Virus record (IMG/VR): IMGVR_UViG_3300021400_003144
Length of the DNA: 64,000 bases
Source: a virus
Taxonomy: Duplodnaviria; Caudoviricetes
Strand: one strand, 5' to 3'
A program made the translations under genes and the position numbers. Positions 24,043 to 31,641 of the stretch are shown one piece after another; within the stretch, counting starts at the first letter, position 1, and the number at the start of each line of letters is the position of its first letter. A model generated the notes under the pieces. The model made no database searches. It saw nothing but the letters and a program-made list of their open reading frames with translations, and was not told where the DNA came from.

Positions 24043-25449
24043 TTGGAGGACATTGTTTTGAGTATAGACAAATTAAGACTTACACCTATTGATATTAATG
24101 ACTGTGTAAAAGATAAGTTAATCAAGTATGAAAATGGAGCATATTCAGACCCTTATGATGTAGAGTCTTTGATTAAAGATAAGAGTAGAGTTAAGAGTAA
24201 TGGAGAAGTATTTACACCAGCTCATATAGTTTCTGATATGCTTGATATGACAGATAAAGCTATCTTTGAGATTGAGGGTAATGATGATTGGAATTTCTAT
24301 GAGTTTGTAGATAGTTGTGCAGATGCTAATAAGCTTAGAAAGTATATCTACAAAACATATCTTGAGCCTTCTTGTGGTAATGGTAACTTCTTGGTTCAGG
24401 TACTTGAAAGAAAGATTGTTGCATCTATAAAGGTGTTTAGACTTACTAATGATAAGGAAGAGTTTATTCTTAATACATACAGGTGTTTTACAACTATATA
24501 CGGTGTTGATATTAAGGGTGACAATATTATAGAGAGTAAGAACAGAATGTATATAAGATATCTTAATACATTGAATAAGTATAACCTTGTATTAAGTGAT
24601 AAGCATTCTGAAGAAGTAAAGCAGCTTGCATATTTTATTATGGACAGAAATATTCAGCTTGGTGATACATTGAAATGGTCTTATGTACAGGATGGAAATG
24701 CACCAATGTTTGAAGCTGAGGTTCTTAGATCATATAAGGAAAAGCCTAAGGAAGAAAAGGGAAGTATTGATGATGCAAGCATGTCTGATGGTGTAACAGT
24801 CAGTACTAAAGTAAAAGATGGTTCAGATGAAAATGTGACTAAGCTTGTCAAGTGGCTTAGAAATCCAGATGGCGAGAAACCAAAGTACAATGATAAAGAC
24901 AAATATCCAATGCTTATAACAGAGTGGATTTTTAATGCTGATAGACTTAGCAGAAGAACCTTTGAGGGTACAGAACTTGCAAAGGAAGAGTCAGACCAGA
25001 TTATTTTCCATGACATTACAGATAGAGTACAAATCAGATATAACAACATATTATCTGATGTTAATACAGCTAGAATATCTGAGGGTGAGAGTGTTGATTT
25101 GAGTACTGAGATTGGAAAAGCTTCAGAAGAATATGTTGAGCCAGATAACATTGAGAGTGAGACATCTGATGATATAGAGGATGACTCAGATGATGAGAGT
25201 AATGGTTTAAATGAAAACATTAATACTAAGAGTGAAAATACAGGAGTTGAAGGACAAATGAATCCTCCAGCATATAATAGTGCTGAGGCTATTGCACAGG
25301 CAGCTTCTGAGGACTCAGGTAACTTATCAAAGAAAGTTAAAGCTAAGAATGAGGCTAAAGAAACAAAGGAAAGTGGTAAAAAGACTACTGCTAAGAATAT
25401 TAAGGGTGTAACTCAGATGCCTAAAGGTGGTCAAATGTCATTGTTATGA
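24043..25449 (+). CDS. N6-adenine DNA methyltransferase-like subunit (SAM-binding half) with acidic disordered tail
   Basis: RVKSNGEVFTP (motif X), YLEPSCGNGNFL (I), YGVDI (II), NIQLGDTL (III); no properly placed NPPY. Confidence 0.75.
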   Translation: MEDIVLSIDKLRLTPIDINDCVKDKLIKYENGAYSDPYDVESLIKDKSRVKSNGEVFTPAHIVSDMLDMTDKAIFEIEGNDDWNFYEFVDSCADANKLRKYIYKTYLEPSCGNGNFLVQVLERKIVASIKVFRLTNDKEEFILNTYRCFTTIYGVDIKGDNIIESKNRMYIRYLNTLNKYNLVLSDKHSEEVKQLAYFIMDRNIQLGDTLKWSYVQDGNAPMFEAEVLRSYKEKPKEEKGSIDDASMSDGVTVSTKVKDGSDENVTKLVKWLRNPDGEKPKYNDKDKYPMLITEWIFNADRLSRRTFEGTELAKEESDQIIFHDITDRVQIRYNNILSDVNTARISEGESVDLSTEIGKASEEYVEPDNIESETSDDIEDDSDDESNGLNENINTKSENTGVEGQMNPPAYNSAEAIAQAASEDSGNLSKKVKAKNEAKETKESGKKTTAKNIKGVTQMPKGGQMSLL

Positions 25450-26543
25450 GGACATATAAAGCTATGGAAGAAATGAGTAATACAGAAGAAAATGGTGTTA
25501 TACTTAGAAATATAGCTGGTAACATAGGTCAGATAGTTAAAGGAATTGGTATGCTTTTAAAACAAGGCATGCCAATTAAAATTAATAATGGTACATTTAT
25601 AGATGAAGATAAATATGAAGAAGATACCAGACAATATAAGTTAGTTGACTTTGCTAGAGATTGTTATGGCATAGAGTTTAGTAAGATAGATATTAACTTA
25701 GATAACTCACATCAGTTGATATTAGTAGGTGTACCTGGAGTTGGTAAAACAACCATAGCGTTGGCTTATGTTAGGGCTAAGACAGGATATGTAAAATCTA
25801 AGTATTATGAGTTAATAACATTTGGAGAAGATTGGGATAGGTCAGACTTTACAGGTGGTACAGTTAATGTAGATGGAGTTTGGCGTAGACAAAAAGGTAT
25901 ATTCACTAAGATGTGTGAAAGAGCTCTTGCAGATAGGAGTCATAACTATTATCTTATAATAGACGAGATCAATAGAGGTAATACAGCTGGAATTATGGCT
26001 GATGCTTTTACAGGTTTATCTCAGCGTGATGTAAGGTATAGAACTCAGCTTGGAGAATACATTACAGTGCCTAGTAATTTATACATTATAGGTACCATGA
26101 ATGCATTTGATAGTAGCATTAGTGACTTGGATATGGCTATGAAGAATAGATTTCCATTCATAGAACTTGACCCAGTATGGAATGACCCTGGATTTGCAAG
26201 TAATCTGACTAGGATTATAGGAGCTATAGAGTATGGTTGGGATAGTCCTTGGTTAAGAAGATTAATGAAGAGAATAGCAAATGATATAGCAGCTCTTAAT
26301 AATGCTATAATGGCTCAAGGAAGAGTTGGAAATGCAGCTTTGATAGGTGTAAGACCAATCTATAAGAAATTTAAGAGTCTTGAGCATTTTAGAGAGTCAT
26401 ATAATAATGAATTATTACATACAATTAAAGACTCTACAGAGTTTGTGCAGGATGTTCCTGAAATATCAGACTATATAAAGGATCTTGAGGGAGTATTGGA
26501 AGATATAGATAGAGTTCTAAGAAGAGATAGCACTAATGGTTGA
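25446..26543 (+). CDS. mcrB: McrB-family AAA+ GTPase
   Basis: GVPGVGKT, LIIDEINRG, GTMNAFD (NxxD), NRF; ATGA overlap with upstream gene. Confidence 0.85.
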   Translation: MRTYKAMEEMSNTEENGVILRNIAGNIGQIVKGIGMLLKQGMPIKINNGTFIDEDKYEEDTRQYKLVDFARDCYGIEFSKIDINLDNSHQLILVGVPGVGKTTIALAYVRAKTGYVKSKYYELITFGEDWDRSDFTGGTVNVDGVWRRQKGIFTKMCERALADRSHNYYLIIDEINRGNTAGIMADAFTGLSQRDVRYRTQLGEYITVPSNLYIIGTMNAFDSSISDLDMAMKNRFPFIELDPVWNDPGFASNLTRIIGAIEYGWDSPWLRRLMKRIANDIAALNNAIMAQGRVGNAALIGVRPIYKKFKSLEHFRESYNNELLHTIKDSTEFVQDVPEISDYIKDLEGVLEDIDRVLRRDSTNG

Positions 26544-27600
26544 TAAAGGTATTAAGTTACAGACAGTTCTTGAAATATTAAGATTTGATGATAAAGATTT
26601 GAAGATAAATGTTTCAGACTTAAACTTTGATGAAATAAATAATATCAATGATTTATTTGGTAGTATACTTGAAAAGGGTATGCAGGAGATAAAACAGTTT
26701 GGTTTTAAGAAAAGTTATGTCAATAGATATAGAGAATTGTCTAAAATAAAAGGTAAGATAGATTTTAATAAATCTATCAGTAAGGCAGCTGTTGCTCGTG
26801 GTAGACTAGTGTGCAATGTAGAGGAACTGAGTATAAATAATATATACAATCAGATACTTAAATTTGCAATTATGAGTCTATTTAAGGGTAGAATTAGTGA
26901 CAGAGAAGATAATGGGGCACTATCACGAAGTATACGGATTAGATTATTACAGTATGTAGATATATTGAAAAATATAAATAATATTAATGGGGTTGACACG
27001 AAACTTGTTGAGTATATAAAACAGTCTGCTCCATTTTATTATGCTAATGGGTTGCATACTGCATTATATATATCTGAGCTATATGGAACTTTAGATATAG
27101 ATGGTAGGTCTAGATTAAAGACTAGTAAGGATTGGAATAGATGCAGAAATATTTTTGAAAGACATATTCTGAATCTAATTCGAGACAGCATAAATGAATA
27201 TGAAAAAGAGTTAGGCAAATTCAAGGTATTACCTAGAGTTTATATGGACAGTAAAGGTAGAAAACTACCTGATATAATAATGTCTGATGGTAAAAGGGCA
27301 ATCACTATAGATGTTTATTGGTATGATAAAAAACATCATAGCACTGGAAAACTTGAAGATGGCTATGATAATTCACACTATGCTAATTATATATCTGATA
27401 CACTTCAAATAGCTAATGTAAATAATTTGATAGTTTATGCAGAAAAAAGAGAAGTCAGTGAGTATTCAGAATATACTAGTGACTTAAAGCAGAACTACAG
27501 ATTAAAAGCATATGTATTTGATATGTACTTAAATAAACCCGTAGAAGTTTTTAATAAAAGGTTTAAAACTGTGTTGAAAGATATGACACAAGTAAGATAA
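26536..27600 (+). CDS. mcrC: McrC-like protein, PD-(D/E)xK motif degenerate
   Basis: IKGKIDFNKSI...ELSINNIYNQILK...IFERHI...LPDIIM...IDVYWY; overlaps mcrB. Confidence 0.75.
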   Translation: MVDKGIKLQTVLEILRFDDKDLKINVSDLNFDEINNINDLFGSILEKGMQEIKQFGFKKSYVNRYRELSKIKGKIDFNKSISKAAVARGRLVCNVEELSINNIYNQILKFAIMSLFKGRISDREDNGALSRSIRIRLLQYVDILKNINNINGVDTKLVEYIKQSAPFYYANGLHTALYISELYGTLDIDGRSRLKTSKDWNRCRNIFERHILNLIRDSINEYEKELGKFKVLPRVYMDSKGRKLPDIIMSDGKRAITIDVYWYDKKHHSTGKLEDGYDNSHYANYISDTLQIANVNNLIVYAEKREVSEYSEYTSDLKQNYRLKAYVFDMYLNKPVEVFNKRFKTVLKDMTQVR

Positions 27601-27627
27601 CAAGGAGGTTACTTATAAAAATAAAAA

Positions 27628-30600
27628 ATGAAACTTAAGAAGATAGCATTAATAACTTTACTTATGACACTTGCAGGTGGTTGTAAATCATTTGCAAGTG
27701 ATACTTTTTTGCCAGGACCACAGGTAAACATACTATTACAAAGGTGCCTTCCATCTACTCCTGGTTATAGTAATTATATACCTGGTGATAGAGTCAGAAG
27801 GATGGAGAGAGTTAATATAGTAGACACAGATTTTGACCCAGAGCATTATGTGATATTTAGATATGACAGTAGTCAATACGGAGAGTTTTCTGTTGATGAA
27901 AGTCATGCTAATAGAGATACTTTAGCTGATGGGCAAAAACTTTCATATATTATATTAGTAAGTTCTACAAATTCAAATTCAACTAGTGAGAAGAACATCT
28001 GGGCATACTATGATGCAGATGGTGGTGGAGAATTGTATGGACAAACAACAGGAAGTATAAAGTTCTTTTATGGTTCTCAAGATGATTTTGGAGTTAAGGA
28101 GCCTACTAATCATGACAGTGATGAATATTGGAATGACTATTCCAAATATATGAATACAATGTCTTCATCTAAAAATACAATTTATTTGAATGCTGATTCA
28201 TCAAAAATGTTCAAAGGTCTAAACTTAGGATATGATGCTGATATAGATTGCGTGTATGCAGATAAGCTATTCAGGACATCATACAATCTTGATAATGGAT
28301 ACTACATTGATACTCAGTATGTAACTGACTATACAGAAATGTTTTTCGGGTGTGTATCTGGAGATACACCATTAGACATAGACTATAATGCTTTTAAATA
28401 TATAAGATGTACTTCTACAAAGAAAATGTTCTATTATGTTAAAGGAGTAAGTACTAATGTGGGTAGCAACTTTGACAATACAATAAACTCAAATTGTGAT
28501 ACAACTGATATGTTCTACACCAGTTCTTACTATAATGATATGCTTAGTTTCAGTGGATTATGGTATGCTCCAAATCATACTAATTATACTAATATGCTCT
28601 ATGAAAGAGCGGAAGATATTCGTAATTTAGACCTCAGATTTATAGCAGTTGATAATTATGAAAAATTATTAGGGCATGGGATGTTCTTAAATTTGAAAGA
28701 GTTTGCACCTCCTATGTTTAAGCTAATGTCTAGACAGCTGGTAGAGAATATAATCAGAGGTGTGGATACATATACTCCAGACTTATCAAATTATCCAGAG
28801 CAATACTGGGATACTAGACCAGCAGGCAGAGGAGATTATATAATGTGGACTGTACAGGGAGATGATACACATAGATTATATGATTGGAAAGAAGTATATG
28901 CAGTATATAAAGAGGCTTATGATAGTGATAAAGAAATAACTTTTGAAGCAGTAGAGATGATAGAACCTATAGTGAAGTTTAATTGTAGTTCTACTGATGA
29001 TATGGATAAATTAAACGGAAGTGAGCTAATTATAAATTTAAATTGTAAATACGGTAATTTTACAATAACAGGTACACTTAATAAAGATGGGAGTAAACTT
29101 AGATTAGATGCTTCTGAGAAAATACCAAAAAGCATGTATAGTATTTCAAATATCAGTGGGTTGGGTGATAACTATACTATAAATAACTTAAGTAATACAG
29201 CATTAGACTACTATAATTACTATAGTACTCCAGTATTAACAATTAAGAATCTACATAAGTATAATCCTAAATTATCAATAGATAAAGATAATACAAATGA
29301 TTCTTATGTAATTACATTTGGTAATTTAGCTAGTGGCATTAAAGTCATTGATAAAGATAACAATGAGACAGTACCAACTGGAATGAAATTAGAGATGTAT
29401 GAAGGTACAGGAGACATAGTAGGAGATGGAGTAACACATTCTAAGTATACTGAGAATCTTAAAAAAGTATCTGAGACTACACTTAATAGCACTACTGGTG
29501 AGTTGAAGTTCAGTGTGGATTGGAACACTAAGGATGCAGATGCTAGGTATTATTATCTAGTAATACCTTCAGATCAAATAGGAGACTATAGATTATCATT
29601 AGACCATGAAAACTCTTACTATTATGTAGATGGAGTAGGCTATATAGTACCTAATGCAGGTGATGATAAATATATTACCAATAATGTTGAGTTTGGAAAG
29701 CATTTGATAACTAGCAATCCAGATAAAAATGCATATAATTCTGTATGGTGCATAGATAAGGATGAAGAAACAGCTGAAAATATTGTGTTTAATATACATG
29801 GAAATGCTGAGCTTCAAGTAACAGTAGATAAGACATCTAATGATGCAAGTATAGTAACATCCTATAATGCAAATAATTCTGATGGAGTTAACTTAGATAC
29901 AGAAGGTGGAATCACATTATTTGCAAAGTCCATATATGATACTGGAGAAGCACAAGTAAAAATATCTACAGAAGTTCCAGCTGGTAAGTATGGCATATAT
30001 GATGCAGACAAGAATCTTATTAAAGAAGTTGAGACTGACGATAACAACATAATAAAGACAGTTATAAATGTTGTTAAGCAGTTAGGAGAAACAATTACTT
30101 ACTATATTAAACAGTTAGACATATTTGATGATACATTAAATGTTGATGATGAGTTTAAGGAGTTTGAAGTAGTAGCTTCTCCAAGTGAGTTGAATCCAAA
30201 CGAGTTCACAATGGTAGCAAAGGGATTGGATGAAATTACCTTTAATAACCCATTAAAGCAGGCTACACCATCAGAACTTGATAAAAAGGACATCGAAATT
30301 GAAGTTGATGATGTTAGAAAAGAAACTGTTGACCTTACAGATTATAAATCAGATGCAGCTGTGACATTCAATGTTCTAGAGTATGTAAATGATAACTATG
30401 AGGATGAATACTTTGATAGGTTACTAAGAACATCAGGCATTACAAGTAAGTATAAGTATACTTTTAATAATAAAAAGAACTTGTTTATAGACCTTCAGGA
30501 AAATGAAGATGACAACAGCTTGTATGATTTATCTATGTATACAGACAATAATACAAAGGAAATAGAATTTGATATACCTGAGAGTATACAGGAAGAACTT

Positions 30601-31350
30601 GTAGATGCAGGAATTACTGATGTAGCAATCAGTAAGATTGAAGTAAAGTTTAAGAGTAACTCTGGTATAAGTACTCCTTCAGAGATTGGTAAGAGTACAC
30701 CATCTGAAATTACTCATGACAATGATGATAAGAAGAGTACACCTTCTGAAATTCCTAGTAATAATGGAAAGGGAAATGGAAAAGGAAACGGAAGCAATAG
30801 TGGAAACACTGGAAATAATGATAACAATGGTGAAACAAGTGGTAATGAAAGTGGAGCTAATATCGGAAACAATAGTGAAACTGGTAATGTAGTTAATAAC
30901 ACTAATAAATCATCTAATAGCAGTAAAAAGAACAAAGATGATGAAGATAATAGGCCAGCTTATGATGGTGATTGGTTTACATTAGATGGAAAGCCTTTGA
31001 ATAAACCAGTATCTAAGGCTGGTGGTGCTAAGTTTAAGATATGGCAAACAAGTCTTTATGTTAAAGATGAAAAACGTATACTACCAGTACATGGCAGATA
31101 TGGAACTTATAGAACATACTTGTTTAACCATGAAGGTCAAATAGTTTATGGCTGGGCTAAGGACCCTAAGACTCATAAGTGGCATTACTTCAATGATGAG
31201 GGAGCTGAACTCTATGGATGGCAATTCATCAATGGAAAATGGTATTTCTTTAATGATGATATGAATGACATAAATCATGGAGATATGCTTAGCAACTGTA
31301 CTTATAAAGGATACAAGTTGGGTGAAGATGGAGCATTAATAGAGAATTAG
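27628..31350 (+). CDS. Secreted surface protein, paralog 3: degenerate DUF285-like N-terminus, shared C-terminal module, cell-wall-binding repeats
   Basis: Signal peptide MKLKKIALITLLMTLAGGCKSFA; IYLNADSSKMF...IDTQYVTDYTEMF; C-terminal module from ~29947 homologous to ORFs 1 and 3867. Confidence 0.88.
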   Translation: MKLKKIALITLLMTLAGGCKSFASDTFLPGPQVNILLQRCLPSTPGYSNYIPGDRVRRMERVNIVDTDFDPEHYVIFRYDSSQYGEFSVDESHANRDTLADGQKLSYIILVSSTNSNSTSEKNIWAYYDADGGGELYGQTTGSIKFFYGSQDDFGVKEPTNHDSDEYWNDYSKYMNTMSSSKNTIYLNADSSKMFKGLNLGYDADIDCVYADKLFRTSYNLDNGYYIDTQYVTDYTEMFFGCVSGDTPLDIDYNAFKYIRCTSTKKMFYYVKGVSTNVGSNFDNTINSNCDTTDMFYTSSYYNDMLSFSGLWYAPNHTNYTNMLYERAEDIRNLDLRFIAVDNYEKLLGHGMFLNLKEFAPPMFKLMSRQLVENIIRGVDTYTPDLSNYPEQYWDTRPAGRGDYIMWTVQGDDTHRLYDWKEVYAVYKEAYDSDKEITFEAVEMIEPIVKFNCSSTDDMDKLNGSELIINLNCKYGNFTITGTLNKDGSKLRLDASEKIPKSMYSISNISGLGDNYTINNLSNTALDYYNYYSTPVLTIKNLHKYNPKLSIDKDNTNDSYVITFGNLASGIKVIDKDNNETVPTGMKLEMYEGTGDIVGDGVTHSKYTENLKKVSETTLNSTTGELKFSVDWNTKDADARYYYLVIPSDQIGDYRLSLDHENSYYYVDGVGYIVPNAGDDKYITNNVEFGKHLITSNPDKNAYNSVWCIDKDEETAENIVFNIHGNAELQVTVDKTSNDASIVTSYNANNSDGVNLDTEGGITLFAKSIYDTGEAQVKISTEVPAGKYGIYDADKNLIKEVETDDNNIIKTVINVVKQLGETITYYIKQLDIFDDTLNVDDEFKEFEVVASPSELNPNEFTMVAKGLDEITFNNPLKQATPSELDKKDIEIEVDDVRKETVDLTDYKSDAAVTFNVLEYVNDNYEDEYFDRLLRTSGITSKYKYTFNNKKNLFIDLQENEDDNSLYDLSMYTDNNTKEIEFDIPESIQEELVDAGITDVAISKIEVKFKSNSGISTPSEIGKSTPSEITHDNDDKKSTPSEIPSNNGKGNGKGNGSNSGNTGNNDNNGETSGNESGANIGNNSETGNVVNNTNKSSNSSKKNKDDEDNRPAYDGDWFTLDGKPLNKPVSKAGGAKFKIWQTSLYVKDEKRILPVHGRYGTYRTYLFNHEGQIVYGWAKDPKTHKWHYFNDEGAELYGWQFINGKWYFFNDDMNDINHGDMLSNCTYKGYKLGEDGALIEN

Positions 31351-31369
31351 TACAGTAAAATAGTTCAGA

Positions 31370-31527
31370 GTAAAAAAAGAACCCTTTTATAGGGATTGAT
31401 TTGATAATGTATTATTCTTTCAGTTCACAAGGTCAGTAAGTGAACCCTTGCAATAGGGATTGAATGATTACAGCTTTTAAGTTATAATTTTCTTTATTCA
31501 AGAGAACCCTTCTAATAGGGATTGCAT
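31370..31527 (+). CRISPR. Degenerate orphan CRISPR-like mini-array (3 hairpin repeats, 2 spacers), no cas genes
   Basis: GAACCCTT-N2/3-ATAGGGATTG cores at 31379, 31442 and 31504 (period 63/62); CCCT/AGGG stem followed by ATTGA. Confidence 0.45.
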
Positions 31528-31612
31528 ACTATATTTAAAACAATATTGGTTTAAGGGTGACTTGTAAAAGGTACTCTTTATTTATATAAATTAAAATTAT
31601 TTTATAAATATA

Positions 31613-31641
31613 TTGAAATTTATATAAATTTGTGTTATAAT
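31613..31641 (+). promoter_or_regulatory. SigmaA-type extended -10 promoter
   Basis: TTGAAA-N17-TATAAT with TGn. Confidence 0.75.

Follow-up and report, generated by a model that had tools for sequence, protein, structure and literature searches.

Directly behind a long gene in the stretch of DNA analysed here (64,000 nucleotides, hereafter the window), a short hairpin motif recurs three times at regular distances, enclosing two intervals that look like spacers. The question raised by this locus is whether it is a CRISPR array at all and, if so, which proteins would read it. An earlier note on the same DNA described an orphan, CRISPR-like mini-array and suggested that a host Cas6 turns it into guide or decoy RNAs, with in-phase protein-binding sites or an old tandem repeat as alternatives.

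Three hairpin repeats in a 3' untranslated region

The repeats lie where they had first been noticed. Their cores start at 31379, 31442 and 31504, with periods of 63 and 62 nt, and are separated by 42 and 40 nt. Three matches to AACCCT-N3-9-AGGGATT (at 31380, 31443 and 31505) are the only ones on either strand of the 64-kb window; shuffles put the chance expectation at 0.01, and none of 100 shuffled sequences held at least three copies. The covariance model likewise returns these three copies only, at 32-44 bits. Each repeat is 27-29 nt long, and the CCCT/AGGG arms are indeed constant while the loops (TTTAT, TGCAAT and TCTAAT) differ in sequence as well as in length. The array and its surroundings comprise the following features, in which L003 denotes a related rumen contig that we discuss below.

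27628..31350, + strand: 1240-aa gene with a choline-binding repeat; the array sits in its 3' untranslated region
31375..31402, + strand: repeat 1; stem CCCT 31382-31385 / AGGG 31391-31394, loop TTTAT; covariance model 32.1 bits
31395-31402, + strand: tag of repeat 1, ATTGATTT, 3' of the stem; predicted Cas6 cut between 31394 and 31395
31403..31437, + strand: spacer 1, about 35-37 nt
31438..31466, + strand: repeat 2; stem 31445-31448 / 31455-31458, loop TGCAAT; covariance model 42.2 bits; tag ATTGAATG, predicted cut between 31458 and 31459
31467..31499, + strand: spacer 2, about 33-35 nt, pyrimidine-rich (purine fraction 0.37)
31500..31528, + strand: repeat 3; stem 31507-31510 / 31517-31520, loop TCTAAT; covariance model 44 bits; tag ATTGCATA, predicted cut between 31520 and 31521
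31553..31590, + strand: terminator-like hairpin with U-rich tail, closing the array; weak in the window, strong in L003
31613..31641, + strand: strong sigma-70-like promoter (TTGAAA-17-TATAAT plus extended TG) serving the next gene; conserved in L003
31665..32027, + strand: 120-aa ORF with no assigned function, the anchor used for finding relatives

The position just after a gene stop, also remarked upon earlier, can be stated more precisely: the array starts 27-29 nt past the stop codon of the 1240-aa gene (31348-31350). No AT-rich leader with its own promoter was seen: the first repeat follows the stop codon closely, and the L003 array has no promoter-like site upstream. On the other side, the terminator-like hairpin reaches about -7.6 kcal/mol in the window, which is not better than shuffled sequence, whereas its counterpart in L003 (-17.8 kcal/mol, z -4.5) is called as an 11-pair terminator. 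The promoter at 31613..31641 marks the downstream boundary of the array's transcription unit, and the neighbours further downstream are genes for an AAA ATPase, a DUF1002 protein and a helicase. Rfam finds nothing at gathering score; below threshold it lists matches to CRISPR-DR47 and DR60 (weak, on repeat 2) and a spurious one to FtrA.

A few observations on the surroundings may be added. A three-gene operon encoding MTase-like, McrB-like (AAA_5) and McrC-like proteins lies directly upstream (window 24043-27600). The 1240-aa gene, a surface-protein gene of 3.7 kb with its own ribosome-binding site, lies between the McrC-like stop and the window array. It does not qualify as a cassette with repeats at both ends, for its 5' side carries neither a repeat nor a remnant of one. 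Inside the array, a promoter-like site (TTGAAT-17-TATAAT, 10/12 matches, window 31460-31488) uses the tag of repeat 2 as its -35 box; it could drive transcription of spacer 2 or be a chance occurrence in AT-rich DNA.

A cas operon flanked by this repeat, elsewhere on the scaffold

The window belongs to a rumen metagenome scaffold of 282,865 bp, probably from sheep to judge by its sample names. Walking along this scaffold from the window by eight successive exact-protein look-ups added 76 kb, and the pieces joined without mismatch into 139,767 bases (139.8 kb), so that about half of the scaffold was covered. The label 'orphan' holds for the window itself: no cas family was found among the roughly 30 window ORFs scanned or in the Pfam list of the window's right-hand end (about 52.5-64 kb), a scan that is non-exhaustive. 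It does not hold for the scaffold, as a five-gene cas10(HD)-csm2-csm3-csm4-cas6e-like operon lies about 100 kb downstream of the array, at window-equivalent 131,350-135,717 (L047:12621-16988, L047 being a piece of the walk). Its outermost genes are:

L047:12621-14498: Cas10-like protein, 625 aa, with an HD domain and a Cas10/Csm1 N-terminus
L047:16362-16988: Cas6e-like protein, last of the five operon genes

Csm3 scores well above its cut-off (182 bits against 90, with solved Csm3 structures matched at 1e-40), Csm2 passes narrowly (31.7 bits, cut-off 30.6), and Csm4 matches five PADLOC Csm4 models and scores 47 bits, under the 55-bit cut-off. The Cas6e-like protein reaches 56 bits with Pfam PF08798 (cut-off 25) and 63 bits with the PADLOC Cas6e model, and it aligns with E. 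coli CasE at E=0.002; when it served as query in a word-seeded search for homologues, it returned only itself. In the Cas10-like protein, matches to Cas10 profiles are confined to residues 10-250, the C-terminal 370 aa match no profile, and the GGDD cyclase motif is absent from the translation. Neither Csm5 and Csm6 nor Cas1 and Cas2 were seen in the 139.8 kb examined. The operon itself includes no Csm5, Csm6 or other CARF effector, and scans of three unnamed ORFs beside it gave no family match.

The 139.8 kb hold 35 copies of the repeat (a regular-expression scan and the covariance model agree), all on the + strand and all co-oriented with transcription. Three are those in the window, none occurs over the next 94 kb, and the remainder form arrays of 16, 6, 7 and 3 copies. 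These 32 copies lie within about 6 kb on either side of the cas operon, the 6-copy array ending 123 nt before cas10 and the 7-copy array starting 43 nt after cas6e. The window copies share their cores with particular cas-adjacent ones: that of repeat 1 is identical to the copies at window-equivalent 136,906 and 136,129, and that of repeat 2 to the copy at 125,415. Their scores (32-44 bits) compare with 18-43 bits for the cas-adjacent copies. All five arrays seen on the element begin 14-75 nt past a stop codon.

Two further points touch this operon. Beside it, directly after the fourth cas-adjacent array, a gene for a 745-aa protein (L047:18465-20702, window-equivalent 137,194-139,431) combines AAA_33 kinase, metallophosphatase and T4-type RNA ligase domains, as in Pnkp-like RNA repair. 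In addition, the short, GGDD-less Cas10-like protein resembles the HD-fused large subunits of subtype IV-C, which have been described as intermediates between type III and type IV (PMC11656645).

As to the element as a whole, all of its genes lie on a single strand, and no tRNA gene or Rfam family reached threshold in the DNA scanned. Virion genes were not identified in the parts scanned, including a PHROGs scan of ten large unnamed proteins, so that the element may be either jumbo-phage-like or megaplasmid-like and the word 'phage' is unproven. Its 4.5-kb array neighbourhood matched nothing in the plasmid and phage collections, and no relatives turned up in IMG/VR when the 120-aa ORF and the AAA ATPase were used as protein queries. 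At window-equivalent 96-102 kb or thereabouts (pieces L043-L045), a tellurite-resistance-like cluster (YceG-like, TelA and three TerD genes) stands beside a P-type cation ATPase, and beyond it follow serpin, MscS channel, radical SAM and family A DNA polymerase genes; such cargo is unusual for a phage-like element.

Repeat anatomy

Among 60 copies of the family, the ATT following the stem is invariant, the stem and its flanking A's are conserved at 90% at least, and conservation fades 7-8 nt beyond the stem. Such a profile fits cleavage at the hairpin's 3' base, which would leave the canonical 8-nt 5' tag on the crRNA (PMC5965381). The earlier description of a Cas6-type hairpin followed by an ATTG tag is supported, and one cas-adjacent copy ends in ATTGAAAC.

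The loop is far less constrained, being 5 or 6 nt long and absent in one L003 copy. Loops differ in all three window copies and in most others too, so that the repeats of one array are not near-identical. Loop variation within an array is atypical for arrays made by Cas1-Cas2. Thermodynamics add little, since the 4-bp repeat hairpins reach about -5 kcal/mol, no better than shuffled sequence, and the invariance of the stem makes covariation analysis uninformative on the hairpin. Two deviating copies deserve mention. The last repeat of contig L016 (1675-1700), GAACCCCTTTATGGGGAAT, has a CCCC/GGGG stem instead of CCCT/AGGG and is the sole clear compensatory example seen. In the 16-repeat array, the copy at window-equivalent 125,706-125,734 (L047:6977-7005) reads GAACCATTCTAATGGGGATTG, which may represent either a damaged stem or a CCAT/ATGG one whose tag is displaced by 2 nt.

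The spacers

Spacer lengths in the family are mostly 33-35 nt. The spacers are unique: spacer 1 is unlike spacer 2 and 43 other spacers, and in-register identity between spacers is 0.299, against 0.292 for shuffled ones. As the spacers are mutually unrelated, a decayed tandem repeat, one of the alternatives offered at the outset, is contradicted. The ttcttt..ttca word said to be shared by the two window spacers is at chance level too, its local alignment score being reached in 757 of 2000 shuffles.

Their composition also sets them apart from the surrounding DNA. The + strand of the element has a strong purine and G>C skew (mean purine fraction 0.59), whereas the spacers average 0.49; a purine fraction below 0.5 is found in 24 of 44 spacers but in only about 10-13% of background 34-mers. 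This is consistent with spacers acquired from outside, in whichever orientation. A set made up wholly of antisense copies of purine-rich mRNAs was also considered and rejected, given that the composition is skew-neutral (mean purine 0.49) rather than inverted. Protospacers were found for none of the 44 spacers in the 139.8 kb of element, the related contigs and 50,697 phage records, in which the rumen virome is poorly covered. IMG/VR, queried with the exact cores of the two window spacers only, gave no match, and there too the rumen virome is poorly covered.

The locus in relatives

Among 5.8 billion proteins, only three are homologous to the 120-aa ORF. One of these, 86% identical, lies on a 2.2-kb cattle-rumen contig, L003, and allows the locus to be compared in a relative as the earlier note had advised. 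There, the same locus holds 11 repeats (GAGAACCCTTNNAATAGGGATTGAYTA) with a period of 60-61 nt and a different spacer in every gap. The left flank is the McrC-like gene, whose DNA is 92% identical to window 26771-27610, and the right flank is 93% identical to the window from the last repeat (repeat 3) on. Between these flanks the sequence separating the repeats is unrelated and 0 spacers are held in common; the L003 spacer at the place corresponding to spacer 2 bears no relation to it. The order on L003 is McrC, array, terminator, promoter and ORF, with the 1240-aa gene absent, and homology between window 27600-31378 and L003:830-900 is lost about 10 nt past the McrC stop and returns at the last repeat. 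On L003 the array is therefore the immediate 3' neighbour of the MTase-McrB-McrC-like operon, placing two defence-type modules side by side. The change in repeat number and the replacement of the spacers, together with the repeats flanking the cas operon, support the designation CRISPR-like mini-array.

Other members of the family are few. Of 24 matches in metagenomes, most arose by chance (a match on L031, for instance, lies inside an ORF), and only three rumen contigs proved to be family members. L016 carries six family repeats and L025 a degenerate array plus a solitary copy, in both cases directly after genes; on L038, a contig of 167 kb, two repeats follow genes and are themselves followed by what looks by eye like a terminator. 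The two-repeat pattern matched once in IMG/VR, by chance and within a coding region. In 185,579 species-representative genomes, a collection in which the host may be missing, the exact pattern yielded no array and just seven isolated chance matches.

A proposed explanation and its rivals

We consider it probable that the locus, with its three repeats and two spacers, is a small satellite CRISPR array belonging to the repeat family of the element's own CRISPR-Cas system, and that it is processed and loaded as follows. The apparently leaderless array would be transcribed by read-through from the 1240-aa gene and the MTase-McrB-McrC-like genes ahead of it, up to the hairpin that precedes the next promoter, where transcription would end. 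The element's Cas6e-like endonuclease would then bind each CCCT/AGGG hairpin and cut at its 3' base, so that the spacer behind it would begin with the 8-nt 5' tag AUUGNNNN. Both RNAs produced in this way may be loaded into a Csm-like complex and trimmed at their 3' ends, after which they could direct the complex to complementary transcripts, be they the host's or those of competitors. There, RNA would be cleaved by Csm3, while the HD domain of Cas10 would probably act on DNA. As neither GGDD nor Csm6 or CARF genes were seen, signalling by cyclic oligoadenylates is not expected. Processing by a host Cas6, as first suggested, finds no support, for a Cas6e-like protein and a type III-A-like effector are both encoded by the element itself. 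Several points count against a satellite array: the distance of about 100 kb to the cas operon, the failure to find a protospacer for any of the 44 spacers in the collections searched, the differing loops within an array, the weakness of the hairpins and their lack of covariation support, and the fact that no Cas1, Cas2 or leader was seen in the half of the scaffold covered.

A more far-reaching version is possible, although we hold it tentatively. The guide repertoire may be dispersed and leaderless and may have been built otherwise than by ordinary Cas1-Cas2 integration, with repeat-spacer units of differing loops being shuffled among many small arrays and related elements via recombination at the conserved stem and tag. 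As the arrays sit in their 3' ends, the expression of ordinary operons would govern guide output, and the guides would be read by a hybrid system in which a Cas6e-type enzyme is joined to a cyclase-less Csm effector.

An alternative is that the repeats act as Cas6-dependent 'punctuation' for processing or stabilizing mRNAs at operon 3' ends, where bound Cas6e would define and protect the ends and the spacers would be mere passengers. The leaderless arrays, each 14-75 nt past a stop codon, speak for it, as do the terminator-like hairpin after the window array, its L003 counterpart that scores as a true terminator, the terminator-like sequence behind the L038 mini-array, the solitary or paired copies after genes in L025 and L038, and spacer searches that returned no target. 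We nevertheless deem it unlikely, as a single hairpin would suffice for such a role, yet there are three in the window and eleven in L003, and regular 33-35 nt spacers, a conserved 8-nt tag region and total spacer replacement between near-identical relatives are the traits of a guide array.

The repeats might instead give rise to decoys, that is, RNA anti-CRISPRs (Racr-like) that would titrate the Cas6 or the effector subunits with which a host's CRISPR-Cas system works. Phages are documented to carry solitary repeat units that mimic host repeats (PMC10651486), and the repeat studied here resembles class 1 repeats ending in ATTGAAA, with its sub-threshold Rfam matches to DR47 and DR60 pointing the same way. 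Against this, the element has its own Cas6e-like gene and an effector flanked by the same repeat, the units carry unique, regular spacers, and the 185,579 species-representative genomes hold no array of this repeat (only the seven isolated chance matches). As the element carries a cognate operon and no host array with a matching repeat was found, a decoy is unparsimonious; from the same facts, it is also less likely than a guide. Of the two roles first put forward, that of guide is thus favoured, and we regard the decoy role as very improbable.

Duplex-DNA protein sites in helical phase (iterons, a centromere or regulator sites) or the remains of tandem duplication can hardly be credited, despite a 62-63 bp period close to six helical turns and a location 90-240 bp upstream of a strong promoter, since all 35 copies lie on one strand, the sequences between repeats are unrelated, no Rep, Par, replication or partition gene is adjacent, the same motif makes 16-copy arrays beside cas genes, and the arms lie at differing distances (5-6 nt, with 0 nt in a copy from L003), such free variation of the loop arguing against a rigid duplex-DNA site.

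Relation to known systems

Taken singly, the mini-array is an ordinary-looking outpost of the element's system, and for the satellite array and its operon several known systems offer comparison. Huge phages are known to carry compact arrays (median six repeats) and CRISPR-Cas systems without adaptation genes (PMC7162821). The element resembles them (Al-Shayeb et al. 2020, PMC7162821) in being a very large, mobile-element-like replicon whose effector operon has no Cas1, Cas2 or Cas4 in view and whose arrays are short, with 3-16 repeats. It differs from them in its scattered arrays, one of them about 100 kb from the operon, in its loop-heterogeneous repeats and in showing no virion genes in the parts examined.

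Virus-borne mini-arrays (Medvedeva et al. 2019, PMC6858448; PMC11656645) likewise have one or two spacers and sit on a mobile element far from cas genes, and they presumably act in inter-element conflicts (PMC6858448; reviewed in PMC11656645). Such mini-arrays copy a host repeat and use the host's Cas proteins (PMC6858448, PMC11656645), whereas in our case the matching Cas6 and effector are on the element and no host array was found.

Turning to the proteins, the operon follows the cas10-csm2-csm3-csm4 order of the type III-A (Csm) systems of Staphylococcus epidermidis and Streptococcus thermophilus. Its Csm3 scores above the equivalog cut-off, and it shares with these systems an 8-nt tag after the (here predicted) Cas6 cut site and spacers of 33-35 nt. 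Unlike in type III-A, the Cas10 is short (625 aa), matches in its N-terminal HD part alone and has no GGDD, the processing enzyme is of the Cas6e (type I-E) family, and no Csm5, Csm6, adaptation genes or leader were seen. The substrates of type I-E Cas6e (CasE/Cse3) are similar in that a stem-loop with a C-rich and a G-rich arm precedes an AU-starting 8-nt handle, and the protein matches both PF08798 and E. coli CasE. The type I-E repeat stem measures 6-7 bp, whereas the stem is only 4-6 bp here, and the enzyme is paired with a type III effector, not with Cascade. RNA anti-CRISPRs and solitary repeat units (Camara-Wilpert et al. 2023, PMC10651486), finally, are also repeat-like hairpins located on a mobile element outside a cas locus; they differ from our array, which has regular spacers and a cognate cas operon on the element and mimics no host repeat in the genomes searched.

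In the literature we found no description of such a combined system. It departs from those known in its repeats conserving stem and tag only, in its leaderless arrays in operon 3' ends and in its pairing of a Cas6e-type enzyme with a cyclase-less Csm effector. A further departure is the total replacement of spacers between relatives that are 92% identical, with no adaptation genes in view.

Significance

What had looked like a cas-less curiosity becomes the outpost of an RNA-guided system that is complete and self-contained and is carried by a giant rumen element. This system brings together three things that are rarely found in one place, namely a minimal, GGDD-less type III-A-like effector, a Cas6e-family enzyme, and many short, leaderless arrays whose repeats conserve stem and tag alone. 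If the arrays are functional, they would amount to a natural mutational scan of what a Cas6e-type enzyme requires of its substrate, and they would be guide arrays expressed as the tails of ordinary operons. How a complete turnover of spacers comes about between relatives as close as 92% identity, where adaptation genes were not seen, is a question that can be put to the test.
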